Shown in pieces: positions 25,006 to 56,301 of a stretch of DNA of 64,000 nucleotides; the stretch's first letter is position 1, and each line of letters opens with the position of its first letter. Under the pieces are notes generated by a model, which saw nothing but the letters and a program-made list of their open reading frames with translations, searched no databases and was not told the origin of the DNA. This DNA comes from an uncultured Halanaerobiales bacterium (GTDB lineage: Bacteria; Bacillota; Halanaerobiia; Halanaerobiales; M55B127), in contig CAYSHP010000007.1 of assembly GCA_964430875.1 (NCBI GenBank), positions 1,736 to 65,735 on the forward strand, read 5' to 3'. The position numbers and the translations under genes were made by a program.

Positions 25006-25404
25006 ATGTTATTTAAAATTATTTGTTATGTGTTGGCATCTACTGCTTTTTTAAAAGGACTTGTTGGTATTTTTGCACACCAATTATTATATGGTTGGGC
25101 TGAGAAACATTATGGTAAAAAAGGTAAATCTTTTACTGTTAATCTACTTTTATTTTATGCATTTACAATATTAATACTAACTTGGTATGCTACTCTTTTT
25201 CAGTATACAGAATATGGATGGATTCTAACAACATTTATTACCTTAATGTCTATAAAAACTGTCGGCTTAACTTTTAAATGGAAAAAAGCATCTCAAAAGT
25301 TTGTTTCTTTCATTAAAAATAGTGGTAAAAAACTCTGGCTTTTAGATGTTGTTGTAATTATTTTAAGTCTTGTCTTTTTTGGACTTGGATACTTTGTCTA
25401 TTAA
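25006..25404 (+). CDS. Hypothetical 4-TM membrane protein
   Basis: 132 aa, hydrophobic, with an RBS (GAAAGGAG). Lies in an operon with the ABC-2 exporter. No family recognised. Confidence 0.6.
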   Translation: MLFKIICYVLASTAFLKGLVGIFAHQLLYGWAEKHYGKKGKSFTVNLLLFYAFTILILTWYATLFQYTEYGWILTTFITLMSIKTVGLTFKWKKASQKFVSFIKNSGKKLWLLDVVVIILSLVFFGLGYFVY

Positions 25405-31041: not shown

Positions 31042-31938
31042 TTACTTTCCCTCCTTTTTATCTGGTCTACCGCCAATCTTATTTACACATTTAAAACCTA
31101 TTTGATTTGCATAATGAGCTGCTTCTTTTAAATTTTTATTTTTTAGATATTTAGCTATAAAAGCAGCTGAAAAAGCATCTCCTGCACCCGTGGTATCTCC
31201 TTCAGCTAACTTTCTTTTCTGTTGAATAAAACAAATTTCATTTTGGTTTCCAATCATACAGCCTTTTTTACCTACTTTTAAAATTACATTTTTATAATAG
31301 TTCAGCAAGTGACTTGTAATTTCTTTTGGCTTATTTTTACCTGTTAGTATCTTGCCTTCTTCTAGATTAGGAAAACAAAGCTCAATACCTTCTGTTTGAT
31401 TTAAGATCTTTTGGATTCCATAATCTTTAAGTCCGGAATAAGAAGAAGGGTCAAATGAAACTGTAATATTTTTTTCTTGCGCCCTCTTTATAGCTTTAAG
31501 AGCAGTATTTTCCATGTTTTTTTCGCCAAAAAAGCTATAACCTCCTAGATGTAGATGGTTTACATCTTCAAAAAATTCTTCTTTTATATCCTCTGGCTTA
31601 ATTTTTACATTTGCACCCCGGTCTGTAATCATTGTCCGGTCTCCATCTTTACTTAATAGAACCACAATTCTGCCGGTTTCTTTTTCTTTACTAATCAGAT
31701 TTTTAAAATCAATATCTGTATTTGCAAATTCTTCTTTTAAATAATCTACTATAAAGTCATCACCTGTTTTAGCAATAAGTCTAACTTTTTGATTTAGATA
31801 ATCCAACCAGTAAGAAAAATTAGCAGCAGAACCACCACCTTTAAAAAATATCTCTGATTGGCTGTCAGTATTAAAGTTTATTGCTTCTCTTAAATTCACG
31901 ATAATATCAAGATTTATATCTCCAATTACTAAAATCAT
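31042..31938 (-). CDS. psuK: PfkB-family carbohydrate kinase, probable pseudouridine kinase
   Basis: 298 aa. PfkB motifs GGGSAANF and DTTGAGDAF. Lies immediately downstream of psuG with a 1-nt gap. Confidence 0.7.
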   Translation of the reverse strand: MILVIGDINLDIIVNLREAINFNTDSQSEIFFKGGGSAANFSYWLDYLNQKVRLIAKTGDDFIVDYLKEEFANTDIDFKNLISKEKETGRIVVLLSKDGDRTMITDRGANVKIKPEDIKEEFFEDVNHLHLGGYSFFGEKNMENTALKAIKRAQEKNITVSFDPSSYSGLKDYGIQKILNQTEGIELCFPNLEEGKILTGKNKPKEITSHLLNYYKNVILKVGKKGCMIGNQNEICFIQQKRKLAEGDTTGAGDAFSAAFIAKYLKNKNLKEAAHYANQIGFKCVNKIGGRPDKKEGK

Positions 31939-31939
31939 T

Positions 31940-32857
31940 TTATCTCATTTCCTTTAATGCTTGCGATATTTTACAACCGGCCTTCAAGTTATTTTTTACC
32001 AGAGATATATTAGCTTTTACACTCGCTCCATCGGTTTCTTCTTTTATTCTTGCTAAAAGATAGGGCGTAATATCCTTACCTCTGATATTTTTATCTTCTA
32101 CTTCCTGTATTAACTCATCAATAATTTTATTAAACTGAGCCCGGTTAAGTTCATCTTCTTTCGGAATAGGTACGGTAACTAATATTCCATTTCTATTTTC
32201 TAAAAGCATATTCTTTACCATTATATCAGCAACTTCTTTACCATTGCTGACCGGGTAATCAACTTCAAGACCACTATCTCTTAAATAAAAAGCAGGAAAT
32301 TTTTCAGTATTATAGCCAAGAATAGGTACTCCTTTTGATTCTAATACTTCCTTGGTTTTTGGTAAATCAAGTACTGATTTAGCTCCAGCACAAACTACGG
32401 TTACTGGAAATTCAGATAATGCTTTTAGGTCAGCTGAAATATCAAAGGTTTTTTCTGCTTTTCTATGTACTCCCCCAATACCACCTGTTACAAAAACATC
32501 AATACCGGCTAAATATGCAATTTGCATAGTTGCTGCGACTGTTGTTGCACCATTTAACTTTTTGGAGACCAAAACTGGTAGATCCCTTAAACTAGCTTTT
32601 TTAATATTATTTGATTGTCCAAGAAATTCTATCTCTTCTTTAGTTAACCCCACCCTCAACTCACCATCAATAATTGCAATTGTCGCTGGAATTACTCCCA
32701 CTTCTCGGGCTTGTTCTTCTAATTCTATGGCCAGCTCAATATTGTCAGGATAAGGAAAACCATGTGCGATTATTGTGGATTCTAAAGCAACAATCGGTTG
32801 ATCTTCTTTAATAGCTTTCCCTACCTCTTTAGAATACCTTAAAAAATTTTCCACCAT
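31940..32857 (-). CDS. psuG: Pseudouridine-5'-phosphate glycosidase
   Basis: 305 aa. VALESTIIAHGFPYP, GATTVAATM, FVTGGIGGVHR and DISADL are characteristic of PsuG/IndA. Confidence 0.9.
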   Translation of the reverse strand: MVENFLRYSKEVGKAIKEDQPIVALESTIIAHGFPYPDNIELAIELEEQAREVGVIPATIAIIDGELRVGLTKEEIEFLGQSNNIKKASLRDLPVLVSKKLNGATTVAATMQIAYLAGIDVFVTGGIGGVHRKAEKTFDISADLKALSEFPVTVVCAGAKSVLDLPKTKEVLESKGVPILGYNTEKFPAFYLRDSGLEVDYPVSNGKEVADIMVKNMLLENRNGILVTVPIPKEDELNRAQFNKIIDELIQEVEDKNIRGKDITPYLLARIKEETDGASVKANISLVKNNLKAGCKISQALKEMR

Positions 32858-33052
32858 TAACTCCCCCCTTTTAGATATATCAAGTAAACTGGTAGCTATT
32901 TTTTTCTTTTAAATATTTTCTATAATTTTGTCTGTTTCTTATATTAATGATTTCAATATCGAACTTGCTTTTCCTTTATCAAGCTATCTAGAAAAAATTA
33001 AACCCCTTTAATTTTTATTTAAGCTTAAAGATTAAGTGAACTTCACAACTTA

Positions 33053-33391
33053 TTAATTACTGTTGTCCTCTGCTTTATAGGTTAATATTTCTACTTTTTC
33101 TACTGTTACTAATCCTTCTTTTACCATCTCTTGTACAGTAGGTATTATATTGTCTATCTTTTCTGACTTATCAACCACCTCAATCATAATAGGAAGATCT
33201 TCAGATAGTTGCCAGATATGAGAATTTTTAATTCTACTGTTTAAACCAAACCCTTCTATTCCGGAAATTGCAGTTGCTCCAGCTAATCCCATTTCTTTAA
33301 ATTTTTTTATCAATGCTCTGTAGAGTGGTTCACCTTCCAACATATCATTTTCGCCAATATATATTTTTAACACTTTACCTTCTCCAACCAT
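33053..33391 (-). CDS. DUF190 (PII-like fold) protein
   Basis: The ORF is 33053..33433. The start is moved to ATG at 33391 (RBS AAGGATGGTGA), which removes the overlap with the antiporter. KIYIGENDMLEGEPLY..GLAGATAISGIEGFG is typical of DUF190. Confidence 0.8.
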   Translation of the reverse strand: MVGEGKVLKIYIGENDMLEGEPLYRALIKKFKEMGLAGATAISGIEGFGLNSRIKNSHIWQLSEDLPIMIEVVDKSEKIDNIIPTVQEMVKEGLVTVEKVEILTYKAEDNSN

Positions 33392-33407
33392 TTTATCACC
33401 ATCCTTT

Positions 33408-34601
33408 TTATTTAAGCCAATTATTACCCGCAAATTTAATACCGACTGCCCCCAAAGGTGCAGTAATCACAATAGCTAACACTGCCATAGCTAAAATTAA
33501 TTCACCCGATTCAACTCCAACTGCTATAGGTACTGCCCCAATTGCTGCTTGAACTGTCGCCTTTGGTGTATAGGCTATCACACAAAAAAATCTTTCTTTT
33601 AAATTTAAAGGGGTATTAGTTACAGAAATTAACACACCTATACTTCTAGCCAAAAGACCAACTGAGATAATTAACAAACCTTTCAAACCAGTTTCAATAG
33701 CCAGATAAACATCCACCTCAGCTCCCACAAGTACAAAAAGCATTATTTCTGCAAAAACCCATATCTTATTAAATTTAGAAGCAAGTCTTGTTCCTACTAA
33801 TTTATAACGTTCCTGAAGTACAAATCCTATTGTCATAACCCCAAGAAGAGAAGCAATTGGCACAATATCTTTTAAATAATCTTCTAAGCCAGTTAATAAT
33901 ATTGCGGATCCTAATATAATTAAAGCTTTTTTTGTATCTCTAAAGTGATATTTCTTAAATAGATAAACCATAAATAAAGCTATAAAAAATCCAAGCAGAA
34001 CTCCTATAATAATGGATAAGGGGACATCCATTATCTTTTTTGTAATATTTATTTGTTTCCCTCCATAAATACCCATGAATGTAGTAAAAATTGTAATAGC
34101 AACTACATCATCAATAGAAGCTCCAGTCAATATTAAAGTGGGTATTCCTTTATTAGTTCCCTTATTTTTATTTATCAAATTTAACATCTGGGGAACTACC
34201 ACAGCCGGTGAAACAGCTGCAATAATAAAAGCTAATATTCCTGCCTCCACGAAAGATAACTCAAAAATATAACTTGCAACTAATAAAATTGAAATCCCTT
34301 CTAAAATACCCGGTATAAAACTTAGTCTAAAAGCAGGAAGACCTACTTTTTTGAGCGTTTCTTTTTCAATACCTAAACCTGCTCTCAACAAAATTACAAT
34401 TAAGGCAATCTTTCTTAAATCGGCTGATATATTTAATATTTCATTACTGATAATACCAAATCCATAAGGACCAATTAAGATTCCCAAAATTAACATCCCC
34501 AGTAAACCCGGTAACTTAATTTTATCAAATAATCTATTAAAACCCAATCCCAATAAAATAATTACTGCTAAACTAAAGGCCATAACAACTTCACACTCCA
34601 T
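33408..34601 (-). CDS. Cation:proton antiporter (Na+/H+ exchanger family)
   Basis: 397 aa polytopic protein with an LPGLLGMLILGILIGPYG N-terminus. The start could instead be ATG at 34583 (MAFSL). Confidence 0.85.
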   Translation of the reverse strand: MECEVVMAFSLAVIILLGLGFNRLFDKIKLPGLLGMLILGILIGPYGFGIISNEILNISADLRKIALIVILLRAGLGIEKETLKKVGLPAFRLSFIPGILEGISILLVASYIFELSFVEAGILAFIIAAVSPAVVVPQMLNLINKNKGTNKGIPTLILTGASIDDVVAITIFTTFMGIYGGKQINITKKIMDVPLSIIIGVLLGFFIALFMVYLFKKYHFRDTKKALIILGSAILLTGLEDYLKDIVPIASLLGVMTIGFVLQERYKLVGTRLASKFNKIWVFAEIMLFVLVGAEVDVYLAIETGLKGLLIISVGLLARSIGVLISVTNTPLNLKERFFCVIAYTPKATVQAAIGAVPIAVGVESGELILAMAVLAIVITAPLGAVGIKFAGNNWLK

Positions 34602-34618
34602 TATAATTTATTTTTGCA

Positions 34619-34710
34619 TAAAAAAATAAGCTCCTATTCAGCCCAATTGTTCTGAATAGGAGCCATCAATTGCAAAATATGCAATAATTAAGGTGAGCTC
34701 CATCACCTAC
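34619..34710 (-). promoter_or_regulatory. Fluoride riboswitch (crcB motif) with terminator expression platform
   Basis: The minus-strand RNA reads AGGUGAUGGAGCUCACCUUAAUUAUUGCAUAUUUUGCAAUUGAUGGCUCCUA. This is followed by the hairpin GCUCCUAUUCAG-N10-CUGAAUAGGAGC and U7. It closely parallels the remembered B. cereus crcB riboswitch (AGGCGAUGGAGUUCGCCAUAAACGCUGCUUAGCUAAUGACUCCUAC plus terminator). Confidence 0.85.
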
Positions 34711-34731
34711 TATATTTTTAATTATATATTA

Positions 34732-35646
34732 TCATTCTCTACTGTATGGTTTACCAAGTGCAGCCGGGAATTCTACTCTTTTTCTGAAAATCCACATTAT
34801 CAATAAGACCGAAATAAAAGGTAACATTAATAAGAACTGATAAGGTATTAAAGAATTTCCCAATTGCTGTTGGAAAGAAAAAACTTCAATTGCAGCAAAT
34901 ATAAAAGCACCAAGTAAAGCTCTTTCCGGCCTCCAACTAGCAAATATAGCAATACCTATCGCCATGAAACCTCTACCATTAGAAATATTGGTAGTATATG
35001 TTCCTGTAACAACAAGCGGTAAATAAGCGCCTGCAAGGCCCATTAATGAGCCACCTATGATAGTAGTTACATATCTTCTTAATTTTACATTTATACCAAC
35101 AACATCTGCAGCCTTGGGATCTTCTCCAATAGCCCTAGTTTCTAATCCTAAACGGGTATGATAAAAAATATAGTAAGCGGCAAAGACTGCTATATAAGCA
35201 AAGTATACCACTATATCCTGATTTAAAAAGGCAGATATTATAGGTATCTGTGAAATACCTGGTATTCTAATATCAGGGACAGGAGGAGCTTCTGGTGCAA
35301 AAAGCTGAACTCCCACAATAGTCTTATATAATAAATCAGATAAGCCTGTCCCTAAAATTACTAGAGTAATCCCTAGTATAAATTGGCTAATCTTTAGCTT
35401 TTCATGGATATATATTAATATCAGTCCAAAAAGAGCTCCCATTAAAGCCCCTACTAAAAAACCCATAAACCAATTTCCAGTTTGATAAGCAGCAATAAAA
35501 CCGGCAGAAGCGGAAGCAAGCATAATACCTTCCCCAGAAATATTAAAAACTCCCGTTCTTCCACCAATCACTATTCCAAGACTGGCCAGGGCATAAACAC
35601 TTGTATAAGAAACTATCTGAGTAAGTATTTCTGTTAGTTGGCCCAC
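34732..35646 (-). CDS. Nucleoside/BMP-type ABC transporter permease
   Basis: 304 aa, about 8 TM segments, ribose/BMP ABC permease family. In an operon with the BMP binding protein. Confidence 0.88.
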   Translation of the reverse strand: MGQLTEILTQIVSYTSVYALASLGIVIGGRTGVFNISGEGIMLASASAGFIAAYQTGNWFMGFLVGALMGALFGLILIYIHEKLKISQFILGITLVILGTGLSDLLYKTIVGVQLFAPEAPPVPDIRIPGISQIPIISAFLNQDIVVYFAYIAVFAAYYIFYHTRLGLETRAIGEDPKAADVVGINVKLRRYVTTIIGGSLMGLAGAYLPLVVTGTYTTNISNGRGFMAIGIAIFASWRPERALLGAFIFAAIEVFSFQQQLGNSLIPYQFLLMLPFISVLLIMWIFRKRVEFPAALGKPYSRE

Positions 35647-35682
35647 AACAACACTTCCTTTCTATAACTAAGTATATGTTTT

Positions 35683-36774
35683 TTATTCAATATATCCACC
35701 GCCAGCTTGACGTCTTAATACTACAATCAATAAAACTATTATTGCTTGAGTTAAGAATACAAGTTCTACAGGTACCTGTAAAGTCCTCTGCATAGCATCT
35801 GCACCTACTAATAAAATTGAGATGAACATTGCTGAAAGAGGTACACCTAAAGGTTTACCCTGACAAATTAAGGCAGTTAATATACCGAAAATACCGTATT
35901 GAGCACCACTAGTTAAGGCAAATCCTTCAATTAGACGGGAATGAACCCCCATAACTTCTATTCCACCACCAAGGCCACCCATGGCCCCAGCAATTAAGAA
36001 AGTAAATATTAAGGTTTTCTTCATCTTTATTCCATAAACAGAAGAAGCATCAGGATTATATCCTGTTGCCTTTATTTCATAACCTAAAACGGTTTTATTC
36101 ATTAGATAATATACAGCAATTATTGCGATTAAAACAACTATAATACCCAAATGAATTTGGCCAAACACCTTAGGAAACAAGGCCGCTTCTGGCAGTTTCA
36201 AAGTCATCGGATGGCCGGTTTGAGGAGCCTTCCAGGGATTCGTTGTCGCTACAAAGTTAACGAAGTAAAAAGCTATAAAGTTTAACATAATAGTTGAAAT
36301 AATTGGATTAATATTATAATAAGCTTTTAAAAATCCAGCTAAAAATGCAAAGGCTGCGCCAGCTACCATTGCTGTTAATATGAGTATCGGTATGAAAATT
36401 ACAGAAGGTATATTAAAACCTGATAATCCAATTCCTACAACTGCTGTAATAGTTCCTCCAAAAAGCATCTGGCCCCAGCCACCGATATTAAAAAATTTAA
36501 TTCTAAAAGGAATAGCAAAGGCATATGTTGCGAAAGTTAAAGGAATAAATTTCTTTAAAGTCTCTATTATACCTCTTCTTGAAGAAAACGAAGTTAAAAT
36601 TAAGGTTTGATACGCTTTCGGTATATTATATCCTAACAAGCCAATAATCACGCCTGAAATTCCAAATGCAATTAATAAAGCTAACACATAAGGCTTAACA
36701 TTATTCCAAATTTCTTGCCCTCTGGAATCTTCTTGAATTACTTGTTCTTGTCCAGCCACTTTACTAACCTCCAA
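35683..36774 (-). CDS. Nucleoside/BMP-type ABC transporter permease
   Basis: 363 aa polytopic protein. Overlaps the ATPase stop. Confidence 0.88.
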   Translation of the reverse strand: MEVSKVAGQEQVIQEDSRGQEIWNNVKPYVLALLIAFGISGVIIGLLGYNIPKAYQTLILTSFSSRRGIIETLKKFIPLTFATYAFAIPFRIKFFNIGGWGQMLFGGTITAVVGIGLSGFNIPSVIFIPILILTAMVAGAAFAFLAGFLKAYYNINPIISTIMLNFIAFYFVNFVATTNPWKAPQTGHPMTLKLPEAALFPKVFGQIHLGIIVVLIAIIAVYYLMNKTVLGYEIKATGYNPDASSVYGIKMKKTLIFTFLIAGAMGGLGGGIEVMGVHSRLIEGFALTSGAQYGIFGILTALICQGKPLGVPLSAMFISILLVGADAMQRTLQVPVELVFLTQAIIVLLIVVLRRQAGGGYIE

Positions 36775-38299
36775 TCATCTTTGCACCAATTTCATATTTA
36801 TCATACTGATCTTGCGTAAATATATCTACAAGTTTTCCTTCATGGATAACTCCAATTCTATCACTTACTTCCATTAGTTCATCTAAATCTTCATTGATAT
36901 ATAATACTGCTGTATTCTTTGACCTCAAATCAACTAATCTATTAAATACAAATTCCACAGAAGCCATATCTAAGCCAGCAGTTGGACTGTGAGTTACCAA
37001 TAAATCCAAATCATTTATCAAAGCTCTTCCAATAACTACTCTTTGTATATTACCGCCTGAAAGCTTGCCAATTTGCTGTTCTTCATCAGGAGTTTTTACT
37101 TCATATTCATCTATTATTTCTTTGGTTTCTTTTTTAACTTTATTCCATTTAACTATACCATTTTGTTGAAATTGATCTTCTCGCTGGTGTCCCAATAAAA
37201 CATTATCTTTTATATCCCCTAGTCCTAAAATAGATTCATTTTTTCTGTCTTCAGGTATATAAAAGACATTTCTTTTAAAAATCTGATTTGTAGTAAGTCC
37301 ATTTACTTTTTTACCTTTTAAAATAATTTCTCCTTCAGTAATGTTATTGGGATCAATTAAAACTTCCGCCAGCTCTTTTTGGCCATTACCGGAAATCCCA
37401 GCTATACCAAGTATTTCACCCCCATAAATATCAAAAGAGATAGAATCTAAATTAGTGCCATCTTTTTCTTTTGATTTAGCCGAAACATTTTTGAGACTTA
37501 AGATAGGTTCTTTAGATTTTTCAACCTCCGGTATATCTATTATGGGAATAGCGCTTTCTGTAATATTTATTTCTTGATTTTGGAACATTAGTTTGACTAA
37601 ATCTTCTTTTGTAACATCTTCAGTATCTACGGTACCCTGCATTACACCACCTGTTAACACACTTGCCCGATCACAGGCCTTTAAAACTTCTTTTATTTTA
37701 TGGGTGATAAAAACAATGGTAACCCCATTTTGCACCATTTTTTTAAGAGAATCTAATAATTGTTCAAATTCCTTTTCTACTAAGGAAGTAGTAGGTTCAT
37801 CTAAAATTAAAATATTAGCTCCTCTATAAATAGCCCGAATTATTTCAACCTTTTTTTGCACTCCAGCTGGTAGTTCTTTTACTTTAGTATCAAGGGGAAA
37901 TTGTAAACCAAAATCCTTTTGTAGTTTTAAGATTTCCTCTTTTGCCTCCCCTAGTTCTAAATTTAATTTACTACCTTCAGTACCTAAAATTAAATTTTCA
38001 AGAGCAGTAAATTCTGGCACTAAAGTAGAGCTTTGATGAATCATTCCAATACCTTTTTTTATAGAATCAATAGGAGAATTAAATTTAACTTTTTCTCCCT
38101 TTATATAAATTTCACCTTCATCTTCATTATAAAGACCATATAATACATTCATTAAAGTAGATTTACCGGCACCATTCTCTCCTAATAAACCATGGATTTC
38201 ACCTTTATTTAGATCAAAATTAACTTTATCTAAAGCCTGAACTGGACCAAAACTTTTACTTATATTTTTAGCTTCTAACACTTTATTTGTATTAGCCAT
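36764..38299 (-). CDS. Nucleoside/sugar ABC transporter ATP-binding protein (tandem ABC domains)
   Basis: 511 aa. Walker A GENGAGKST, LSGGNIQR, and two nucleotide-binding domains. Confidence 0.9.
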   Translation of the reverse strand: MANTNKVLEAKNISKSFGPVQALDKVNFDLNKGEIHGLLGENGAGKSTLMNVLYGLYNEDEGEIYIKGEKVKFNSPIDSIKKGIGMIHQSSTLVPEFTALENLILGTEGSKLNLELGEAKEEILKLQKDFGLQFPLDTKVKELPAGVQKKVEIIRAIYRGANILILDEPTTSLVEKEFEQLLDSLKKMVQNGVTIVFITHKIKEVLKACDRASVLTGGVMQGTVDTEDVTKEDLVKLMFQNQEINITESAIPIIDIPEVEKSKEPILSLKNVSAKSKEKDGTNLDSISFDIYGGEILGIAGISGNGQKELAEVLIDPNNITEGEIILKGKKVNGLTTNQIFKRNVFYIPEDRKNESILGLGDIKDNVLLGHQREDQFQQNGIVKWNKVKKETKEIIDEYEVKTPDEEQQIGKLSGGNIQRVVIGRALINDLDLLVTHSPTAGLDMASVEFVFNRLVDLRSKNTAVLYINEDLDELMEVSDRIGVIHEGKLVDIFTQDQYDKYEIGAKMIGG

Positions 38300-38426
38300 A
38301 TTGCAAACTCACTCTCTTTTTTAAATATTTTTATTTAAAATGTCTCAAGAAAACTCCATCTAAATCTTATTTTTAATTCAGGTGGAGTAATTGACTAATC
38401 TATCAATAATTAAATTAAAATCAAGA

Positions 38427-38453
38427 TTGCTGCCTGATAACCACAGGCAGCAA
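38427..38453 (-). other. Stem-loop after the binding-protein gene (partial terminator or stabiliser typical of ABC operons)
   Basis: Minus strand UUGCUGCCUG-UGGUUAU-CAGGCAGCAA: a 10 bp stem with a weak U tract. Confidence 0.5.
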
Positions 38454-38488
38454 ATTATAAACTATTAATTTGAATATTTTAATAATCT

Positions 38489-39499
38489 TTAGTCTAGATC
38501 TATTTCAGATAAATTTTTCTCTACTTTTATCTCGCCACTTGCTACTTTTTCTGCAATATCTTTAACCCAGTTATTAACTTCATCAGACACATTATCTACA
38601 GGAAGTTTAAGATAACGAGACTTTTCTGGACCATATTCCATGGGAATAAAGTTGCTTGTTTGACCTGATTTAATTTTTTCAATTGCTTCAAAAACAACAG
38701 GATTATATCTAAATAAATCTGAAGTTAGATGATGTTCTGGTGCTTGATTATACTTATTAGTATAAGTGGTTGTTACATATACTTGTCTTTCAGCATTTTC
38801 AACGGCTCTAAATAAACCATAATTTCCTAAGTTAACTCCACTAATAATTACATCTATACCCTGTGAAATCAATGCTTCAGCACTTTGTTTGGTTTTTACA
38901 GGGTCATTAAAGTCTCCTACATAAATATATTTAAACTCAACTTCAGGTTTATAGGTATCAATTGCCTGGTTAATTGCATTAACTTCACCATAAGTAAAGG
39001 GAAGTTCTAATCCACCGATATAACCTATTTTGTTAGTTTCTGTTACTTGAGTAGCTAAAGCTCCTAATACATAAAAGCCTGGATAATAATTACGTTCTAA
39101 AAGAGTAATATTAGGATATTCTTCTTCTAAAGGCATATCGCCTTCAATTATGAAAGCCACTTCTGGAAATTCCGGAGCTACTTCAAATACTGCTTCATTA
39201 AACTGTGCACCATGAGCCCAAATAATACCATAACCGCTAGATGCATATTCACTTAAAACACGAGCAGCATCTGGTACAGCAACTTGCTCAGAATAAGAAA
39301 CTTCTAGCCCTAATTCTTCTTCAACGGCCTCCATTGTCCTATAACCGGTCGCATTATAATCCGCATCCTGGATTGAGCCCGGGAAGATTACAGCAAACTT
39401 ATCCATATCTTGAGCCATTACACTATTACTAATTGAAACAAGACTTAACACCAACATTAAAGTTATTGTTAGAACACTAATAAAGCTAATTTTTTTCAT
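38489..39499 (-). CDS. BMP-family (Med/PnrA-like) nucleoside-binding periplasmic protein
   Basis: The ORF is 38489..39595. The start is moved to ATG at 39499 (RBS AGGAGG), giving MKKISFISVLT. SPase-I type signal (SVMA/QD) with no lipobox Cys. The mature protein is very acidic. Confidence 0.9.
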   Translation of the reverse strand: MKKISFISVLTITLMLVLSLVSISNSVMAQDMDKFAVIFPGSIQDADYNATGYRTMEAVEEELGLEVSYSEQVAVPDAARVLSEYASSGYGIIWAHGAQFNEAVFEVAPEFPEVAFIIEGDMPLEEEYPNITLLERNYYPGFYVLGALATQVTETNKIGYIGGLELPFTYGEVNAINQAIDTYKPEVEFKYIYVGDFNDPVKTKQSAEALISQGIDVIISGVNLGNYGLFRAVENAERQVYVTTTYTNKYNQAPEHHLTSDLFRYNPVVFEAIEKIKSGQTSNFIPMEYGPEKSRYLKLPVDNVSDEVNNWVKDIAEKVASGEIKVEKNLSEIDLD

Positions 39500-39685
39500 T
39501 TTAACTTGCCTCCTATTATTGTTGGAATATTTATTCATAGATACAGTAAATATAAAAGCAAAACCACTCCTTTCTTTCCCTTTTATATTAACCATTATAA
39601 CATATTTTTTAAAAAAATATTATGTTTATAAACATTAATATTAATAATATTTTTTGTAAATTATTACAAATATATTATATTTTAT

Positions 39686-44628: not shown

Positions 44629-45951
44629 TTATAAAAACAAGAAGTATGCAATAAATACTGCACCTAATACATAAACTAATGTATTTACTTCTTTTCCTCT
44701 ACCAGTAAATAACTTAATTAGAGGGTAAATAATAAAGCCTAAAGCAATTCCATTAGAAATTGAATATGTTAAGGGCATTGCGATCATAGCAATAAAGGCT
44801 GGTAATACTTCAGTGAAATCATCCCAGTCTAAGTCACTTACATTAGTCATCATCATAGTACCTACTATAACTAAAGCAGGGGCAGTAGCTGCACCGGGCA
44901 CTAGACCAATTAATGGTCTAAAGAACAATGCTAAGAAAAATAGGATAGCAGTAACTACACCTGTTAAACCTGTTCTACCACCTTCAGCAACACCGGCAGC
45001 AGACTCAATATATGTTGTAACTGTACTGGTACCAAAGAGCGCACCACCAGTAGTACCAATCGCATCAGCCAAGAGAGCATTACTTGCTTTTGGTAGGTTA
45101 CCATCTTCATCAATATAGCCAGCCTGTTTACTTACTCCTACCAGAGTACCGGCTGTATCAAAAAGGTCAACAAATAAGAATGATAATAAGACTCCTACCA
45201 TACTTAATCTTAAAGCTGAAGCAATATCTAATTGGAATAAAACTTGGTTCCAATCAGCCATCTTAGGCATTGCAAAAATACCATTAAAAGCTGGGGTTAC
45301 ACCATTTGTCCAGCCAAAAGCTGTCGCTATTAAGATACCCCAGAGGAGTGATCCTTTTATTTTAAGGGAATGTAAAATTCCAGTTACTATTAAACCAATC
45401 AGGGCAACTAAAGCAGGCCCTGATAATAATGAACCCATACTTACTAAAGTAGCTTCATCATTAACAACGATTCCAGCATTTTGTAGTCCGATAAAAGCAA
45501 TAAATAAACCTATACCAGCACTAATACCAGTTTTTAGATTCATTGGTATAGAGTTAACTATCTTTTTCCGGACCGGCGTCACACTTAAGACAATAAAGAT
45601 TATACCTTCTATAAATATTATCCCTAAAGCGGTCTGCCAGGATACACCCATACCAATAACTACAGAATAAGCAAAAAATGCATTTAAGCCCATACCTGAA
45701 GCTAGTGCAAATGGATAATTTGTTAAGAAAGCCATCGCCAAAGTACCTAAAATAATACCAGCAATTGTAGCAATAAATACTCCATTAAAAGGCATCCCTG
45801 CTTCACTAAGGATTGATGGGTTTACAAATATAATATAAGCCATGGTTAAAAAGGTTGTAAATCCAGCAATTACCTCAGTCTTAGGATCGGTATTGTTCTC
45901 TTTAAGTTTAAATACCTTTTCCAGGAAGCCTCCGTCATTCATTTCGTTCAT
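44629..45951 (-). CDS. NCS2/AzgA-type adenine-guanine-hypoxanthine permease
   Basis: ATG at 45951 (RBS AAGGAGGG). TEVIAGFTTFLTMAYIIFVNP is the hallmark N-terminus of PbuG/GhxQ-type permeases. Confidence 0.9.
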   Translation of the reverse strand: MNEMNDGGFLEKVFKLKENNTDPKTEVIAGFTTFLTMAYIIFVNPSILSEAGMPFNGVFIATIAGIILGTLAMAFLTNYPFALASGMGLNAFFAYSVVIGMGVSWQTALGIIFIEGIIFIVLSVTPVRKKIVNSIPMNLKTGISAGIGLFIAFIGLQNAGIVVNDEATLVSMGSLLSGPALVALIGLIVTGILHSLKIKGSLLWGILIATAFGWTNGVTPAFNGIFAMPKMADWNQVLFQLDIASALRLSMVGVLLSFLFVDLFDTAGTLVGVSKQAGYIDEDGNLPKASNALLADAIGTTGGALFGTSTVTTYIESAAGVAEGGRTGLTGVVTAILFFLALFFRPLIGLVPGAATAPALVIVGTMMMTNVSDLDWDDFTEVLPAFIAMIAMPLTYSISNGIALGFIIYPLIKLFTGRGKEVNTLVYVLGAVFIAYFLFL

Positions 45952-46043
45952 CAAATTCCCTCCTTATTAATGATAAGTCTTAATTTAGATAAATATTGAA
46001 GATAATCTTACACTTATTTTCCCTTTTAACACCTCCTCTTAAA

Positions 46044-47759
46044 TTAATCGCCTACTCCTAGGGAAACAAATTTATTCTCATCAATATCAAATAAACCTTG
46101 GTCAGTTATTTTTAAAGAAGGAATTACTGGTAAAGCCATGAAAGACAAGGTCATAATGGGACTCTGACGAGTTACCCCCATCGAATATACCTTTTCTTTC
46201 ATCTTCTTTAATTTTTTTGCTACTTCAGGTATTGAATCTTTAGACATCAAACCGGCAATTTCTAAAGAAAGACAGTCTAATAGTTTACCATCTTCAACTA
46301 CAGCAATACCACCCTGTAATTTCTCTATTTCTTTGACTGCTTTATACATATCTTTTGAATTTAAGCCAACCACAATAATATTATGTGAATCATGGCCAAT
46401 AGAAATAGCTATTGCTCCTTTACGGAGTCCAAAACCTTTGAGTAATCCTAAACCAACATTCCCGGTTTTTTTATGTCTTTCAACTACAGCTATTTTTACT
46501 AAGTTATTAGCAACTAAATCATCAATTTTTACTTTCTCATCAAATTTTATAATTTCTTTATCAGTTACTATTTGATCTTTTATTAAGCTCATCACACGAT
46601 ACTCTTTAAAATCGGGTAAATTGAAGTCCTGTTTTTTTAACTTACCAATATTAACTGATTTAAATATTTTTTCCGATTTTCCTTCTTTTATTTCAGGTAA
46701 ATTTACAATTAAGCTCTCATTTTCTGCTACAAGTCGACCATCTTTAAAGACTTTTTCTATATTAAAGTCTTTTAGATTATCAAGAATAACTAAATCTGCT
46801 TTATAGCCAGGCGCAATCGCACCCACATTATTTAAACCCAAAGCCTTAGCAGAATTAATAGTCGCTAATTTGATAGCCCTTAACGGTGAGATACCATTTT
46901 GAATTGCCTTTTTGATCACAAAGTTAATATGACCGTTTTCATATAAGTCTTCAGGGTCCCTGTCATCTGTGGCAAATAAAAATCTAGATAAATTACTATT
47001 ATTTACAGCCGGTAGTAAGTTCACGAGATCTCGTGTTACTGAGCCCTCTCTGATCATAACATACATACCCTTTGTTACTTTTTCAATTGCTTCCTCAGGT
47101 TCAGTACATTCATGATCTGCCATTATACCCCCAAGCAGATAAGCATTAAGTGCTTTGCCGCTGACCCCAGGGGCGTGCCCATCGATGAATTTATCACCAA
47201 TCATATCTATTTTTCCCCAAATGTTTTTATCTCCTTTGATCACTCCAACAAAATCCATTACTTCACCTAAACCAAAGATCCCTTCTTTGTCTTTAAGTTT
47301 AGCTAATTTATCGGCTGTTAACACAGCTCCAGAAGTTTCATTAGAGGTAGCAGGTACACAGGAGGGAAGCATTAAATTAAAGTTCCAGGGTAGCTTTGTC
47401 CCGCGGTCTAGAAAATATTTGATTCCATCTAAACCCGCTACATTAGCAATTTCATGTGGATCTGCAAACACAGTTGTGGTGCCTCTTGGCACTATCCAAG
47501 CTGCAAATTCATCCACTCTAACCATAGCACTTTCAAAATGAAGGTGCCCATCTATAAAACCAGGTGCAATAATATTTTCTTCAAAATCAATCTCCTTTAC
47601 CCCTTCATAATCACCAATACCAATTATCTTACCATCTGCAATTGCAATATCTTCTCTAATTAAGCGTTCATTAAACACATCAACTATTCTTCCGTGCTTT
47701 AAGACTAATTCCGCGGGTATTTCACCCTTAGCCATTTTTAAAATTCTATTGTTAATCAA
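46044..47759 (-). CDS. ade: Adenine deaminase
   Basis: 571 aa. PGFIDGHLHFES, DPHEIANV, DGHAPG and HDSHNIIVVG motifs. Confidence 0.9.
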   Translation of the reverse strand: MINNRILKMAKGEIPAELVLKHGRIVDVFNERLIREDIAIADGKIIGIGDYEGVKEIDFEENIIAPGFIDGHLHFESAMVRVDEFAAWIVPRGTTTVFADPHEIANVAGLDGIKYFLDRGTKLPWNFNLMLPSCVPATSNETSGAVLTADKLAKLKDKEGIFGLGEVMDFVGVIKGDKNIWGKIDMIGDKFIDGHAPGVSGKALNAYLLGGIMADHECTEPEEAIEKVTKGMYVMIREGSVTRDLVNLLPAVNNSNLSRFLFATDDRDPEDLYENGHINFVIKKAIQNGISPLRAIKLATINSAKALGLNNVGAIAPGYKADLVILDNLKDFNIEKVFKDGRLVAENESLIVNLPEIKEGKSEKIFKSVNIGKLKKQDFNLPDFKEYRVMSLIKDQIVTDKEIIKFDEKVKIDDLVANNLVKIAVVERHKKTGNVGLGLLKGFGLRKGAIAISIGHDSHNIIVVGLNSKDMYKAVKEIEKLQGGIAVVEDGKLLDCLSLEIAGLMSKDSIPEVAKKLKKMKEKVYSMGVTRQSPIMTLSFMALPVIPSLKITDQGLFDIDENKFVSLGVGD

Positions 47760-47813
47760 TTTAATCCCTCCCTCCCTTATACTTATTATCTATTATATTC
47801 TTATATGTTTTAA

Positions 47814-48902
47814 TTACTCTAATTTTAATGCACCAAAGTTACAACGGGTGATACATAGTCCACAGCCTGCACATTTATCAGGATCGATGACAATATAGTC
47901 TCTACTTTCATTATATGAAATAGCATCATATACACAACTGGTGATACATAAGCCACAAGTGGTACAGTTTTCTTCAATTACTGTTGGTACAACTGTATTA
48001 AAGTTAGCTTCTTCTTTAACCACCTGAGCAGTTAAACCTTTAATATCATTTACACTTTCATATCCATTTTCATCTAAGAATTTATTTAATTCTTCATTTA
48101 TTTTCTTATAGACACTAGGACCATTTACAATAGCTTCTGTACAAACCTGTACAGCAGATGCTCCAGCCATAAACATCTTGGCAGCTCTTAAGCCGCTATC
48201 AATACCACCTACACCAATAACAGGAATATCAACATTATTGGAGGCTTGGTAAACTGCTCTTAAGGCCAGTGGGAATATAGCTTCACCTGATAGCCAGCCA
48301 AATCCATTGTCACTACCCATTACTGGTTTTCCAGTTTTGGGATCAATATCTAAGGTTGGGCCAAAGGAATTAATCAATACAATACCATCTGCACCAGCTT
48401 CTTCAGCCGCTTTAGCAAATTCTGGTATGTCAATTCCCGGACTTAATTTAACGAAAACTGGAATATCGACTTCATCTTTAGCTGCTTTAATACTTTCTTC
48501 CATGGGAGTTGTGTCATCACCTAAATAGTGAGTAGAAAGTTCTAAAGCATCTGCATACTTTTCTACCTTTTTAGCTAACTCTCTAATTTGATCTTTTGTA
48601 TAACCAATACCTGCTATAACGGGTAAGCCTAATTCTCTAATCACAGGATATTCCTCTTCTAGCCAATGTTCTGGAGTTAGTTCGGACCATAGTTCAGTAT
48701 TTAAGAAACCACCTTTTATTCTAGCCATGTTTGGTCTCGGTACTTTAGCAGCCGTAGTAGAGATAGTCTTTGTAACGATTGCACCAGCCCCACCATTTTT
48801 GGCTCTTTTTGCTGCTTTTGCATCTTTAACTGGCGGACCGGCCGCCGGCATAACGGGATTATCTAATTCAATTCCTGCAAATTCTACTTTTAAATCAGCC
48901 AT
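47814..48902 (-). CDS. DHOD/DPD-like FMN oxidoreductase with C-terminal 2x[4Fe-4S] ferredoxin domain (PreA-like)
   Basis: ATG at 48902 (RBS GAGGAGTG). The TIM-barrel DHOD family N-terminus reads FAGIELDNPVMPAAGP. C-terminal CTTCGLCITSC and CAGCGLCITRC motifs. Confidence 0.85.
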   Translation of the reverse strand: MADLKVEFAGIELDNPVMPAAGPPVKDAKAAKRAKNGGAGAIVTKTISTTAAKVPRPNMARIKGGFLNTELWSELTPEHWLEEEYPVIRELGLPVIAGIGYTKDQIRELAKKVEKYADALELSTHYLGDDTTPMEESIKAAKDEVDIPVFVKLSPGIDIPEFAKAAEEAGADGIVLINSFGPTLDIDPKTGKPVMGSDNGFGWLSGEAIFPLALRAVYQASNNVDIPVIGVGGIDSGLRAAKMFMAGASAVQVCTEAIVNGPSVYKKINEELNKFLDENGYESVNDIKGLTAQVVKEEANFNTVVPTVIEENCTTCGLCITSCVYDAISYNESRDYIVIDPDKCAGCGLCITRCNFGALKLE

Positions 48903-48907
48903 CAATA

Positions 48908-49486
48908 TCACTCCTCATTTTTATTAATTTTCATAATTGTCTTTCTTAATTCTTGATAAATATCTTCAAAAACAGATTCATGGTTTTTTTCTTTAACCCT
49001 ATACATACTTATATCATTTCTGCTTCTTATCTTATCTAAAAACTTGTTATGCTCATCTTTGATTACAGCCAATACTGGTTTTTTACTGTCCATAATTTCA
49101 AACACTTTTTCTTGAAATTTTAAAGCCTTCAGCTCAAACCTCCCAAGTTCATCCATGACTAATATATCTCGAAATTTGCTTCCAATTTCTAAAAACTGAA
49201 CTCCTTTATCATCAAAAACCTCGGGATTAACTTGCCAATCTTGGGAAGGATGGTCTCTTTTCGCAAAAATCTGACATTTCTTTTTAAACCCTGCTGAATC
49301 TTTTCCCTGCCAATGGTAATAGTAATCCAGAGGATCTGTTAGGTAAAAACTTAACCACTGATTTATATTGCCTGTTCGACCTACTACAAATCCTCCGGGT
49401 TTTAGATTCAATTTATCTAAAATTCTTTTTACAATAGTACTTTTACCGACATACTTATCTCCGGTAATCAATATATTGTTTGGCAT
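48908..49486 (-). CDS. P-loop NTPase, THEP1/PF03266-like
   Basis: 192 aa. ILITGDKYVGKST (Walker A) and ILVMDELGRFEL (Walker B region) parallel Aquifex THEP1 (IIITGEPGVGKTT, IIIDEIGKMEL) as I remember it. The start overlaps the Mo-subunit stop. Confidence 0.7.
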   Translation of the reverse strand: MPNNILITGDKYVGKSTIVKRILDKLNLKPGGFVVGRTGNINQWLSFYLTDPLDYYYHWQGKDSAGFKKKCQIFAKRDHPSQDWQVNPEVFDDKGVQFLEIGSKFRDILVMDELGRFELKALKFQEKVFEIMDSKKPVLAVIKDEHNKFLDKIRSRNDISMYRVKEKNHESVFEDIYQELRKTIMKINKNEE

Positions 49487-50475
49487 TAATTATTTTTTTC
49501 CTCTAATGCATCTAATATTTTTTCTGGTGTAATCGGTAGACTTTTAATTCTAACACCGATTGCATCATAAACTGCATTTGCCACGGCAGGACTAGCAGCA
49601 ATTAAAGTAGGTTCACCTACTCCTTTAGAGCCAAAAGGTCCATCAGAATCTTTATTTTCAATTAAGGTACTTTCAAACTCGGGAATATCTTTAATACTGG
49701 GAACCAGGTAATTAGTCATATCGGCATTTAAGGTAATACCATCTTTAATCACTTGATCTTCCATTAAAGCCATACCTAATCCCTGAACTGTACCACCTTC
49801 AATTTGACCGTGTACATTTTGCGGATTAATAGCTTTTCCTACATCTAAAGCCGTATAGACATTCATTACTTCAATAATACCAGTATCGGTATCTACTTCT
49901 ATATCCATCACCTGAGTCATAAAAGTATAGGCTACATAGTTTTTCTCAGTTTGGCCTGTTTTCTTATCAGGGGCATAAGTTTTAGGAAAAAAGCTTGCTT
50001 CAGCACTCAGTTTTTTTCCTTTTTCTTCAATTATGTCTGCTAATTGCCAATAAGTTATCTTTTTATCCTCATCACAAGCGTATAATTCACCCTCCTTAAC
50101 AGTTAATTCTGGATGGTTACTGTTAAAATAAAGGCTGCCATGGTGATAGATTTTACCCATAACTTCTTCGGCCGCTTCTCTTACTGCATTACCGGAAAAG
50201 AAGGTTTGTCTACTAGCAGAAGTAGAACCGGAATTTTTTGCATTGTGAGTATCCTGACCGACAATTTCAATATAGGAAGGATCTATTTTTAAGACTTCCG
50301 CAGCAATCTGAATCATTGTTGTTAAAAAGCCTTGACCCATATCTGCACCAGCTGTTCTTAATTTAATCTTCTTGTCTGGGGTGATTTCTATTTCAGCAAT
50401 GGAATGATCGGGAAAACCCTCACCATATCCAAAGCCGAACATTATTGAGGCCATACCTCTTCCTTTTTTTCTCAT
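49486..50475 (-). CDS. Molybdenum hydroxylase, C-terminal half of the Mo-pterin subunit (NdhM-like)
   Basis: 329 aa. Aligns to residues about 440-765 of the full-length paralogue at 57168..59465 and contains GVGEPTL. It has an ATGA overlap with the N-terminal half and a GGGAGGGGGAG RBS. Confidence 0.9.
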   Translation of the reverse strand: MRKKGRGMASIMFGFGYGEGFPDHSIAEIEITPDKKIKLRTAGADMGQGFLTTMIQIAAEVLKIDPSYIEIVGQDTHNAKNSGSTSASRQTFFSGNAVREAAEEVMGKIYHHGSLYFNSNHPELTVKEGELYACDEDKKITYWQLADIIEEKGKKLSAEASFFPKTYAPDKKTGQTEKNYVAYTFMTQVMDIEVDTDTGIIEVMNVYTALDVGKAINPQNVHGQIEGGTVQGLGMALMEDQVIKDGITLNADMTNYLVPSIKDIPEFESTLIENKDSDGPFGSKGVGEPTLIAASPAVANAVYDAIGVRIKSLPITPEKILDALEEKNN

Positions 50476-51791: not shown

Positions 51792-52266
51792 TATCTTCAC
51801 CCCCACTTTGCATCTTGTGGGATGCCTCTTTGACAGCATCAACTATCTTGACATATCCGGTACATCTACATATATTACCGGATAAACCTCTTTTGATTTC
51901 TTCATCACCTGGATTTATATTATCATCGAGTAACTTTTTGCTGGACATAATCATTCCGGGTATACAAAAACCACACTGTACTGCCCCGGTTTCAATAAAG
52001 GACTGCTGGATTGGGTGTAACTTCTCTTTATCTCCTAATCCTTCTACAGTCTGTATCTCAGCACCATCAGCCTGGGGAGCTAATACCAGACAAGAAGCTA
52101 CCACTTTATTATTCATGATTACTGTACAAGCACCACATTCACCTTTTCCACAACCTTCTTTAGTTCCTGTTAGTCCAAGATCTTCTCTTAAAAGGTCTAG
52201 TAAGCGGGTATGTGGTTTAACATCTACTTCTCTTTTTTGACCATTAACTGTTAATTTAATTTTCAT
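51784..52266 (-). CDS. Molybdenum hydroxylase [2Fe-2S] subunit
   Basis: 160 aa. CGKGECGACTV and CGFCIPG..CRCTGY. Confidence 0.95.
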   Translation of the reverse strand: MKIKLTVNGQKREVDVKPHTRLLDLLREDLGLTGTKEGCGKGECGACTVIMNNKVVASCLVLAPQADGAEIQTVEGLGDKEKLHPIQQSFIETGAVQCGFCIPGMIMSSKKLLDDNINPGDEEIKRGLSGNICRCTGYVKIVDAVKEASHKMQSGGEDNV

Positions 52267-54447: not shown

Positions 54448-54453
54448 CCCTCC

Positions 54454-55821: not shown

Positions 55822-55822
55822 T

Positions 55823-56299: not shown

Positions 56300-56301
56300 T
56301 A

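Follow-up and report, generated by a model that had tools for sequence, protein, structure and literature searches.

A predicted fluoride riboswitch upstream of an NHA2-like antiporter gene and a DUF190 gene in a Halanaerobiales contig

The minus-strand leader RNA analysed here is a fluoride riboswitch, judged by its sequence and covariation, and a response to the ligand is predicted. Very probably it serves as the transcriptional ON switch of an antiporter-DUF190 operon that encodes a predicted H+-handling exchanger and a putative regulatory DUF190 protein (Table 1). The window, which was the whole 64-kb stretch of DNA, held a single fluoride aptamer according to both the Rfam model RF01734 and the purpose-built covariance model R1. 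The locus is a well-formed but ordinary case and introduces no new principle. Both overlapping-terminator fluoride riboswitches and their link to Na+/H+ antiporters have been documented since 2010-2012. [quoted passage not shown]

The riboswitch-linked antiporter represents a tightly conserved, horizontally spread subfamily with an NHA2-type ion site, riboswitch-controlled in about nine of ten species sampled, and can therefore be targeted in transport assays as a well-defined group. As a bacterial counterpart of NHA2 it could also serve as a model, one whose physiological trigger is clear. The occurrence of DUF190 with either crcB or the antiporter inside one order is a natural experiment on whether DUF190 is a PII-like regulator of transporters. 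Both side results could help to explain the roles of the non-exporter members of fluoride regulons.

Table 1. Features of the antiporter-DUF190 locus, in window coordinates
Feature	Position	Strand	Details	Basis
Candidate weak sigma-70-like promoter	34728..34757	-	TTGGTA, 18 nt, GATAAT	9/12 consensus matches
Fluoride riboswitch aptamer (crcB motif, RF01734)	34650..34716	-		RF01734 and R1 matches
P1 hairpin	34692..34707	-	GGUG 34704-34707 / CACC 34692-34695, loop AUGGAGCU	sequence, fold
Pseudoknot 5' strand	34697..34701	-	GGAGC, inside the P1 loop	pairs with 34659-34663
Second hairpin	34669..34685	-	AUUGC 34681-34685 / GCAAU 34669-34673	sequence, fold
Pseudoknot 3' strand	34659..34663	-	GCUCC, also opens the terminator stem	sequence, fold, covariation
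Intrinsic terminator	34620..34663	-	perfect 12-bp stem 34652-34663 / 34630-34641, 10-nt loop, then UUAUUUUUUU at 34620-34629	fold
Cation/proton antiporter gene	33408..34583	-	391 aa, NHA2/SLC9B2-like, GGAG ribosome-binding site at 34596-34599	PF00999
DUF190 (PII-like) gene	33053..33391	-	112 aa, own AGGA/GGTGA site	PF02641
Possible weak operon terminator	32993..33016	-	A/U-only hairpin, then U's, after DUF190	fold

Aptamer, terminator and transcription signals

The aptamer was matched over model positions 1-64 of RF01734 with 41.9 bits (E 3.1e-08), the curated gathering score being 34 bits. The score was moderate compared with 61-64 bits in some relatives, and all consensus nucleotides were intact. 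R1 gave 76.7 bits. This model had been built from regex-matched aptamers, and its matches, rechecked at 11 loci, coincided with RF01734 matches. The fluoride riboswitch proposed in the initial annotation, together with a search against RF01734, was thus borne out, and the minus-strand RNA quoted there was found exactly as written. The bounds given there, 33053-34710, included all of P1, but the upper end left out six nucleotides at the 5' side of the Rfam match, where conservation is low.

P1, the second hairpin (P2) and the pseudoknot that joins the P1 loop to the 3' tail can all form in the window RNA, and all three helices are supported by covariation in the 74 homologous aptamers found among related loci. 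P1 was 100% paired across these aptamers, with compensatory changes at two of its four pairs. The second hairpin was paired in 90.9% of cells and showed two-sided changes at all five pairs, and the pseudoknot helix was 98.6% paired. One pseudoknot pair (alignment columns 20-127), U-A in the Rfam consensus, was U-A in 40 aptamers and C-G in 32, the window carrying C-G. In this alignment, which was fitted to a model that already held both hairpins and lacked the pseudoknot, the three helices together had 96.5% of cells paired, compared with 82% in shuffles. Double-change cells numbered 165 against 55 in shuffles, a value reached by none of 500 shuffles. Controls with slid helices collapsed to 35-57% paired.

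The arms of the terminator stem were GCUCCUAUUCAG and CUGAAUAGGAGC, with the U-tract UUAUUUUUUU downstream. The terminator hairpin alone folded at -22.2 kcal/mol and the whole leader at -35.4 kcal/mol (z = -5.2), with none of 200 shuffles folding as well. The first five bases of the stem are the 3' pseudoknot strand of the aptamer, GCUCC. Terminator overlap with this motif was already described by Weinberg 2010, and an aptamer-overlapping terminator of the same design was present in 71 of the 74 related aptamers. The GCUCC strand is the predicted decision point of the switch, and the layout is that of a classic ON switch. Such a layout, with 3' aptamer residues shared with a 12-bp terminator stem, had been read from the letters initially and agrees with the fold and with the relatives. 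A consensus terminator scanner missed the riboswitch terminator because of its loop limit of 8 nt and flagged P1; folding was used instead.

Only 36 nt separated the U-tract from the antiporter ATG. This spacing leaves no room for a promoter, so that transcription must pass the terminator. Sigma-70-like sites were no more numerous in the region than expected from shuffling, and the site listed in Table 1 therefore stays a mere candidate. This site shares sequence with the final codons of the ABC permease gene upstream, and transcription from it would begin a few nucleotides ahead of the aptamer. The aptamer itself starts 16 nt past the stop codon of this permease gene, so some transcripts may stem from the ABC operon, and read-through may be an alternative source of leader transcripts. 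The one candidate for an operon terminator past DUF190 was an A/U hairpin, in a region whose fold was no better than shuffles (z = -0.79).

Antiporter, DUF190 protein and fluoride exporters in related loci

The 391-aa protein matched PF00999 (Na_H_Exchanger) with an E value of 1.6e-40 and 139.6 bits (cut-off 26.2). The match was near full length, with residues 9-383 on profile positions 4-370 of 375, and the start MAFSLA agreed with the conserved N-terminus of 17 homologs. Scores against the NCBIfam K+/H+ equivalog models were far under the cut-offs (61 vs 355), which sets the antiporter apart from those named K+/H+ orthologs. The closest solved structure in a profile search was NHA2 (bison, E 4e-56; human, E 4.4e-55). 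Residues E95, V124, D158, D159, R313, K341 and T343 aligned with NHA2 E214, V243, D277, D278, R431, K459 and T461, and all seven were invariant, with E95, D158, D159, R313, K341 and T343 counted as such in 18 homologs. The protein is a close NHA2/SLC9B2 relative that keeps the ion-site residues, and exchange activity is predicted. Sequence does not reveal whether H+ would move out or in.

The DUF190 gene starts 16 nt past the antiporter stop codon. Its 112-aa product matched PF02641 (DUF190; E 1.3e-37, 128.4 bits vs 23.4), with residues 6-102 on profile positions 1-97 of 97. The match to PF00543 (P-II) was marginal, at 26.4 bits with a cut-off of 25. Relatives in the PDB were 2DCL (E 4.9e-29) and 1O51 (E 1.2e-18), and JGI gene calling on an identical metagenome contig gave the same 112-aa product. 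The two Pfam assignments agree with the Na+/H+ exchanger-family protein and the DUF190 PII-like protein named as regulated genes in the initial annotation.

Orthologs of the antiporter with 58-76% identity were sampled from 80 species, which belonged to Bacillota, Thermotogota and Methanobacteria and included one Bacteroidales MAG. An aptamer lay on the same strand and directly upstream of the antiporter in 70 of the 80 species, beside differing upstream neighbours. This number came from the covariance model built from the 18 of 80 loci that a strict aptamer regex had matched; the regex count itself was discarded. About eight orthologous loci, including the Thermotogae locus L041, carried no aptamer, so the link of the antiporter to fluoride is not a strict one. 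DUF190 was missing at 76 of the 80 riboswitch-antiporter loci. Among the loci examined it followed the antiporter only in the present Halanaerobiales lineage (pairs in L007 (JBNJDV01), L009 (JAXHLT01) and Halanaerobium hydrogeniformans (CP002304)) and at the riboswitch-less L041. Pairs of crcB and DUF190 were located behind RF01734 aptamers in L004, L034 and L085. The finding of DUF190 after riboswitch-controlled crcB genes in relatives supports its recurrence in fluoride regulons.

Sister Halanaerobiales carried crcB followed by a DUF190 gene whose product was 62-67% identical to that of the window. All contigs encoding DUF190 proteins at least 71% identical to the window protein were shared with antiporter orthologs, and those in the 62-67% class were shared with CrcB. 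This split by partner indicates, at the level of gene order and identity, a switch of DUF190 partner inside the order Halanaerobiales. A comparison of the T-loop-like region between clades linked to the cation/proton antiporter (CPA) and to CrcB gave only a few scattered differences and no partner-specific divergence. The T-loop-equivalent stretch GIEGFGLNSRIK...QLSEDLP was nearly identical in both, with differences such as W vs L in HIWQLS/HILQLS, and thus gave no support for adaptation to two very different membrane partners.

To look for fluoride exporters, three CrcB and two CLC-F queries plus a CrcB HMM were run unfiltered on every stop-to-stop segment of 40 aa or longer in the six frames of the window; no match was better than E 0.1. 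Size-compatible ORFs with a Pfam assignment all belonged to other families, and a 132-aa ORF at 25006-25404 had no Pfam family and no match to the CrcB or CLC-F queries. The lack of crcB and eriC-F in the window, as first noted, was therefore confirmed. The term 'non-CrcB fluoride-response module' exceeded this evidence, which covers 64 kb rather than the whole genome, and some relatives pair the antiporter with exporters. In L057 and L079 the next gene after the antiporter, in one operon, encoded a CLC with GNNLI, the CLC-F signature according to PMC11139923. In L004 and L034 the antiporter was within 6 kb of a second operon consisting of riboswitch, crcB and DUF190. From this gene order, the antiporter is predicted to work alongside exporters in these four loci, not to replace them. 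The best 120 of 1921 matches to a Halanaerobiales CrcB query named H. salsuginis, Frackibacter, Sporohalobacter, Halobacteroides and Anoxybacter. None of these 120 was named H. hydrogeniformans, Acetohalobium, Halocella or Iocasia, all of them antiporter carriers; the survey was one of CrcB only. For H. hydrogeniformans, the best 120 matches are suggestive of an absence of CrcB.

Proposed mechanism and alternative readings

According to the established mechanism of this riboswitch class, the terminator would form without fluoride and transcription would stop. With F- bound as a Mg2+-F- cluster, the pseudoknot would hold GCUCC, the terminator would be unable to nucleate and the polymerase would read into the operon. 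The first product would be an NHA2-type Na+(Li+)/H+ exchanger, in which the DD motif and the Glu-Arg pair, the features making NHA2 electroneutral, are kept. HF diffusing into the cell would dissociate and bring a proton load. The likely job of the exchanger would then be H+ expulsion driven by the large gradient of Na+ into a halophilic cell, by which cytoplasmic pH and proton-motive force would be kept where fluoride exporters and metabolism still work. For DUF190, a PII-fold protein of the trimer type, we infer that it is most likely a small regulatory or ligand-sensing subunit of the co-expressed fluoride-induced transporter.

Possibly, although with lower probability, DUF190 is instead a soluble protein of the fluoride-stress response that acts on its own, such as a PII-like sensor or buffer binding nucleotides or metal fluorides, and is simply carried in any available fluoride-induced operon. 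The nearly unchanged T-loop-equivalent in both clades and the many riboswitch-antiporter loci without DUF190 are consistent with this, as is flJ, a separate gene in actinomycete fluorination clusters in the available gene descriptions. However, DUF190 was almost always encoded directly downstream of a membrane transporter gene at the loci examined. GlnK-AmtB and SbtB-SbtA are pairs in which a PII-family protein regulates a membrane transporter, and the precedent of GlnK-AmtB favours modulation of a transporter here as well. So does an earlier genome paper, which put DUF190 forward as a modulator of channels in the manner of GlnK (PMC3543383).

It is unlikely that the same switch serves the reverse physiology, in which the exchanger would import H+ and move Na+ out, lower cytoplasmic pH and shrink the gradient driving F- accumulation. 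This would fit the fact that F- accumulation tracks the transmembrane pH gradient, and the lower internal pH tolerated by fluoride-adapted yeast (Strobel 2022, as summarised in PMC11139923). NHA2-type exchange is moreover electroneutral and reversible, with gradients alone setting the direction. On the other hand, the Na+ gradient of a halophile points inward and favours Na+ entry with H+ exit, and the sequence holds no feature that sets the direction. The association of antiporters with fluoride riboswitches was attributed to pH homeostasis and the countering of acidification (PMC11139923).

A further-reaching proposal, which is doubtful, concerns the lineage of this contig, L007, L009 and H. 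hydrogeniformans. DUF190 would have moved there from Fluc/CrcB to the NHA2-like exchanger and dedicated exporters would possibly have been lost, leaving a DUF190-regulated Na+/H+ exchanger alone as the response and DUF190 as a transporter-agnostic fluoride-stress regulator. If true, fluoride would be tolerated by proton and pH management instead of F- export. Very unlikely is a self-sufficient resistance system of antiporter and DUF190 that replaces Fluc/CLC-F in the lineage, by transport of F- or a fluoride complex or by pH control alone. The window without CrcB or CLC-F, the position of DUF190, normally a crcB partner, behind the antiporter, and the four antiporter carriers not named among the best 120 of 1921 CrcB matches would agree with such a system. 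The invariant NHA2-like cation site (DD, Glu-Arg, Lys) points to cations and H+ as the substrate, the same antiporter stands beside crcB or CLC-F in the four loci described above, and the exporter absence was read from the best 120 matches of CrcB only.

A decayed, non-functional aptamer whose hairpin is the constitutive terminator of the ABC operon, with the antiporter expressed otherwise, is highly improbable: the short distance to the permease stop, the absence of another terminator found for that operon and the moderate Rfam score would suit it, but the aptamer has kept its consensus nucleotides, the two helices and the pseudoknot, there is no promoter room before the gene, and the reading as a mere ABC terminator was rejected on these conserved features and on a layout kept in 70 species beside unrelated upstream genes. 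A fluoride-responsive ON switch of an exchanger and a DUF190 protein is the preferred reading.

Comparison with known systems

The closest counterpart of the switch is RF01734 of the ON type, exemplified by the Bacillus cereus crcB leader. The full-length match, P1, the second hairpin, the pseudoknot and the 3' strand shared with the terminator were all alike and the structure was no different; the downstream genes were the antiporter and DUF190, not crcB or eriC-F. A PF00999 protein directly after the aptamer is also shared with the riboswitch-linked Na+/H+ antiporters of the fluoride 'super-regulon' (Baker et al. 2012, as outlined in PMC11139923). In the outline given there, these antiporters were treated generically, whereas an NHA2-like subfamily is named here and DUF190 is additional in the lineage. 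Among the papers searched, none linked NHA2 with fluoride riboswitches and none joined 'fluoride riboswitch' with 'DUF190'.

[quoted passage not shown] They are likened here by gene description and differ in biosynthetic context and phylum, and the available account of them mentions no riboswitch. The crcB-DUF190 operons (L085/L086, L004 and L034) have the same riboswitch control, with crcB preceding DUF190 in place of the antiporter. Compared with the PII regulators of GlnK-AmtB and SbtB-SbtA, the PII-like fold and the gene position directly after a transporter are alike, and a regulatory role of DUF190 is predicted. The T-loop-equivalent of DUF190 did not differ between the two partner classes.

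The antiporter compares best with NHA2/SLC9B2 (PDB 7P1I, 7B4L), an electroneutral Na+(Li+)/H+ exchanger, which was matched over residues 12-392. The alignment started at query residue 12 and NHA2 residue 124, and the bacterial protein is without the long N-terminus. Because of this start and a length of only 391 aa, it is also predicted to be without the domain-swapped TM -1 helix, and thus to differ from the 14-TM form. NHA2 W456 was replaced by Tyr. Common to both proteins were the DD motif, the NHA2-specific Glu, the Arg, the Lys/Thr of the TM12 break and the unwound segment AVSPAVVVP.

Fluoride riboswitch and its conservation

The initial annotation had described a fluoride riboswitch overlapping a terminator and controlling an antiporter and a DUF190 gene. 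All of these were present, and both the observation and its interpretation were correct. The minus-strand RNA quoted there was identical from 34716 to 34617. RF01734, the search proposed as a check, matched at full model length with 41.9 bits (E 3.1e-08; curated gathering score 34). It was the only fluoride aptamer found in the 64-kb window with RF01734 and R1, a covariance model trained here on 17 aptamers. As described, the 3' aptamer residues are shared with the 12-bp terminator stem, which starts with the pseudoknot strand GCUCC. The leader folded with -35.4 kcal/mol (z = -5.2) and no shuffled sequence folded equally well.

Features of the window
Feature	Position	Strand	Remarks
RF01734 match	34650-34716	(-)	
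P1	GGUG 34704-34707 with CACC 34692-34695	(-)	loop AUGGAGCU
Second hairpin	AUUGC 34681-34685 with GCAAU 34669-34673	(-)	
Pseudoknot	GGAGC (P1 loop) 34697-34701 with GCUCC 34659-34663	(-)	pairing possible
Terminator stem	34652-34663 with 34630-34641	(-)	12 bp, perfect; then UUAUUUUUUU
Antiporter ATG	34583	(-)	36 nt past U-tract; GGAG site before
DUF190 gene	33053-33391	(-)	112 aa
Bmp/PnrA-type ABC transporter operon	34732-39595	(-)	
Indigoidine_A (psuG/psuK-like)	31940-32857	(-)	
PfkB (psuG/psuK-like)	31042-31938	(-)	
c-di-GMP-I-GGC riboswitch RF03167	15449-15527	(-)	71.3 bits; GA 59
Methyl-accepting chemotaxis protein	13040-15112	(-)	690 aa; HAMP + MCPsignal
Putative purine-catabolism cluster	44629-61018	(-)	
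Xanthine/uracil permeases	44629-45954; 59624-61018	(-)	
Xanthine-dehydrogenase-type subunit	50472-51842	(-)	molybdopterin

The comparison set comprised 80 loci from different species with antiporter orthologs of 58-76% identity, spanning Halanaerobiales, many Clostridia and Tissierellia, Thermotogota, Methanobacteria and one Bacteroidales MAG. R1 placed a fluoride aptamer directly upstream of the antiporter, on the coding strand, in 70 of them, coinciding with RF01734 matches in the 11 loci re-checked. The R1 search found no aptamer in seven loci (L001, L020, L026, L040, L041, L061 and L077); the other three held a remnant (L032), a degenerate copy (L054) or no upstream sequence (L015). Riboswitch linkage of this antiporter subfamily was shown to be near-obligate. 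In an alignment of 74 aptamers, 96.5% of paired cells were complementary versus 82% in shuffles, double-sided changes filled 165 cells versus 55 expected, and sliding the partners by 1-3 columns lowered pairing to 35-57%. The pseudoknot, left out of the model that made the alignment, covaried cleanly; one of its pairs was U-A in 40 sequences and C-G, as in the window, in 32. A hairpin starting within the pseudoknot strand and ending at a U-run was present in 71/74 aptamers. This overlap, together with the covariation, makes the window leader a typical, structurally intact example of a conserved, predicted transcriptional ON switch. From what is established for the class, F- binding would stabilise the pseudoknot and block the terminator, and transcription would continue.

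The three exceptions were archaeal. L059, L074 and L075, from Methanobacterium or Methanothermobacter MAGs, kept the aptamer (63.2 bits in L059) before antiporter orthologs of 58-61% identity. No overlapping hairpin with U-run was found there, suggesting a different expression platform. The aptamer-gene unit is implied to have spread horizontally across domains.

Operon layout and fluoride exporters

Translation from ATG 34583 gives the N-terminus MAFSLA, conserved in 17 homologs; a longer ORF starting at 34601 is probably not in use. DUF190 starts 16 nt past the antiporter stop codon, and the JGI gene caller predicted the same 112-aa product on Ga0102934_1000148, a 41-kb metagenome contig of identical sequence. 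The cassette, flanked by the ABC transporter operon and the psuG/psuK-like genes, appears to have been inserted into a cluster for nucleoside/pseudouridine uptake and catabolism. With the aptamer following the ABC permease stop codon after just 16 nt, the riboswitch terminator may double as the end of that operon, and fluoride could let its transcripts run on into the antiporter. Elsewhere in the window, the RF03167 riboswitch lies ~340 nt upstream of the chemotaxis gene, which suggests c-di-GMP control of this chemoreceptor. The region with two xanthine/uracil permeases, the xanthine-dehydrogenase-type subunit and several amidohydrolases looks like a purine-catabolism cluster.

The antiporter was mostly the sole gene behind the riboswitch, and its neighbours varied by species. 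Caloramator sp. and Thermobrachium celere (L057 5882-8551, L079 5878-8550) encode a 441-aa CLC directly 3' of the riboswitch-controlled antiporter. It carries GNNLI, the signature of fluoride-specific CLC-F (PMC11139923), placing exchanger and F-/H+ antiporter in one operon. Two further loci, L004 (182-1071, 5843-7182; Anaerosolibacter MAG) and L034 (5797-7149, 11336-12233), each hold two fluoride riboswitches ~6 kb apart or less. One RF01734 aptamer precedes crcB-DUF190, with pseudoknot variant GAAGC/GCUUC, and the other the antiporter. Downstream of its antiporter locus, L004 also has a Clostridiales-2 RNA and two Moco/tungsten aptamers (RF01055; 9225-9354 and 10688-10808, 86 and 70 bits).

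As initially annotated, neither CrcB nor CLC-F was found within the 64 kb. This absence carries little weight, because the genome is probably 2.5-4 Mb. The best 120 matches to a Halanaerobiales CrcB query included named CrcBs of various genera within the order and none belonging to Halanaerobium hydrogeniformans, Acetohalobium, Halocella or Iocasia, all carriers of the antiporter. An exporter-free fluoride response in this organism is possible but unsupported. Loci that hold antiporter and exporter together speak for an antiporter that as a rule works alongside export.

DUF190 and its partners

The second protein, annotated as PII-like DUF190, was confirmed as DUF190 over its full length and matched P-II marginally; among solved structures its relatives are 2DCL and 1O51, both of PII fold and uncharacterised. 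DUF190 lies directly 3' of the antiporter only in the window, two syntenic MAG loci (L007, L009), H. hydrogeniformans and one riboswitch-less Thermotogae locus. No fluoride aptamer was detectable in Thermotogota L041 (6001-7566; antiporter, DUF190 right behind) or L020 (antiporter), so the antiporter-DUF190 pair also occurs outside riboswitch control. In H. hydrogeniformans (CP002304; L081 1945-5336) and in L082 the order is aptamer (RF01734, 39.5 bits), 107-aa ORF, 471-aa Dynamin_N-family GTPase ORF, antiporter, DUF190, which would be a four-gene fluoride operon including a dynamin-like GTPase.

DUF190 homologs at least 71% identical to that of the window lay on contigs equal in length to those of antiporter orthologs, and those with 62-67% identity lay with CrcB. 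Three look-ups bore out this clean split. Halanaerobiales thus have two sister DUF190 lineages, one serving crcB and the other the antiporter. This change of partner from CrcB to the antiporter inside one order is a by-product worth keeping. One Halanaerobiales crcB-DUF190 pair (L083/L084, 4090-5366) has a ~400-nt upstream gap without RF01734 or R1 match; a paralogous or sister pair (L085/L086) does carry the aptamer. MAG 'PWR10' appears to hold two crcB-DUF190 copies.

PII biology offers precedent for modulating a transporter. That DUF190 modulates the transporter encoded beside it, in the manner of PII proteins, may reasonably be guessed, with precedent in the literature (PMC3543383). A transporter-independent role is the less likely alternative; in its favour, the gene is missing from most loci and the T-loop-like region is nearly alike in the CrcB-linked and antiporter-linked lineages, with no sign there of partner-specific adaptation.

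Antiporter and comparison with known systems

The cation/proton antiporter assignment held, the protein being a full-length PF00999 member; against NCBI named K+/H+ antiporter models it scored far under the cut-offs. An 18-homolog profile matched mammalian NHA2/SLC9B2 structures with E 4e-56 and archaeal NhaP structures with ~1e-10. Residues picked out by the NHA2 structure paper were mapped via profile alignment. E214, V243, D277, D278, R431, K459 and T461 correspond to E95, V124, D158, D159, R313, K341 and T343, all invariant among the homologs, showing an ion site of predicted NHA2 type. The conserved acidic site argues for transport of a cation against H+, and the Glu-Arg pair for NHA2-like electroneutral exchange. 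NHA2 W456, however, is Tyr, and the N-terminal extension of NHA2 is missing, so 13 rather than 14 helices are probable.

At low external pH, HF would enter the cell and dissociate into H+ and F-. The F- would leave through exporters, and the induced exchanger would handle the proton load plus pH and Na+ balance, the rationale given in a 2024 review (PMC11139923). Exchange may also run in the opposite direction: a less probable but serious alternative is that the exchanger acidifies the cytoplasm on purpose and so shrinks the pH gradient behind fluoride accumulation.

This kind of system is already known. The crcB motif, its terminators and their overlap were described by Weinberg et al. (2010). 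Na+/H+ antiporters, rightly annotated as recurrent in fluoride regulons, are described as ranking second in frequency among the gene classes linked to this riboswitch (PMC11139923). Actinomycete fluorination clusters regularly include both DUF190 and a cation:H+ antiporter. Among the literature searched, no paper connected NHA2 with fluoride riboswitches; that the riboswitch-linked antiporters form a conserved subfamily of NHA2-like type is a by-product worth keeping.
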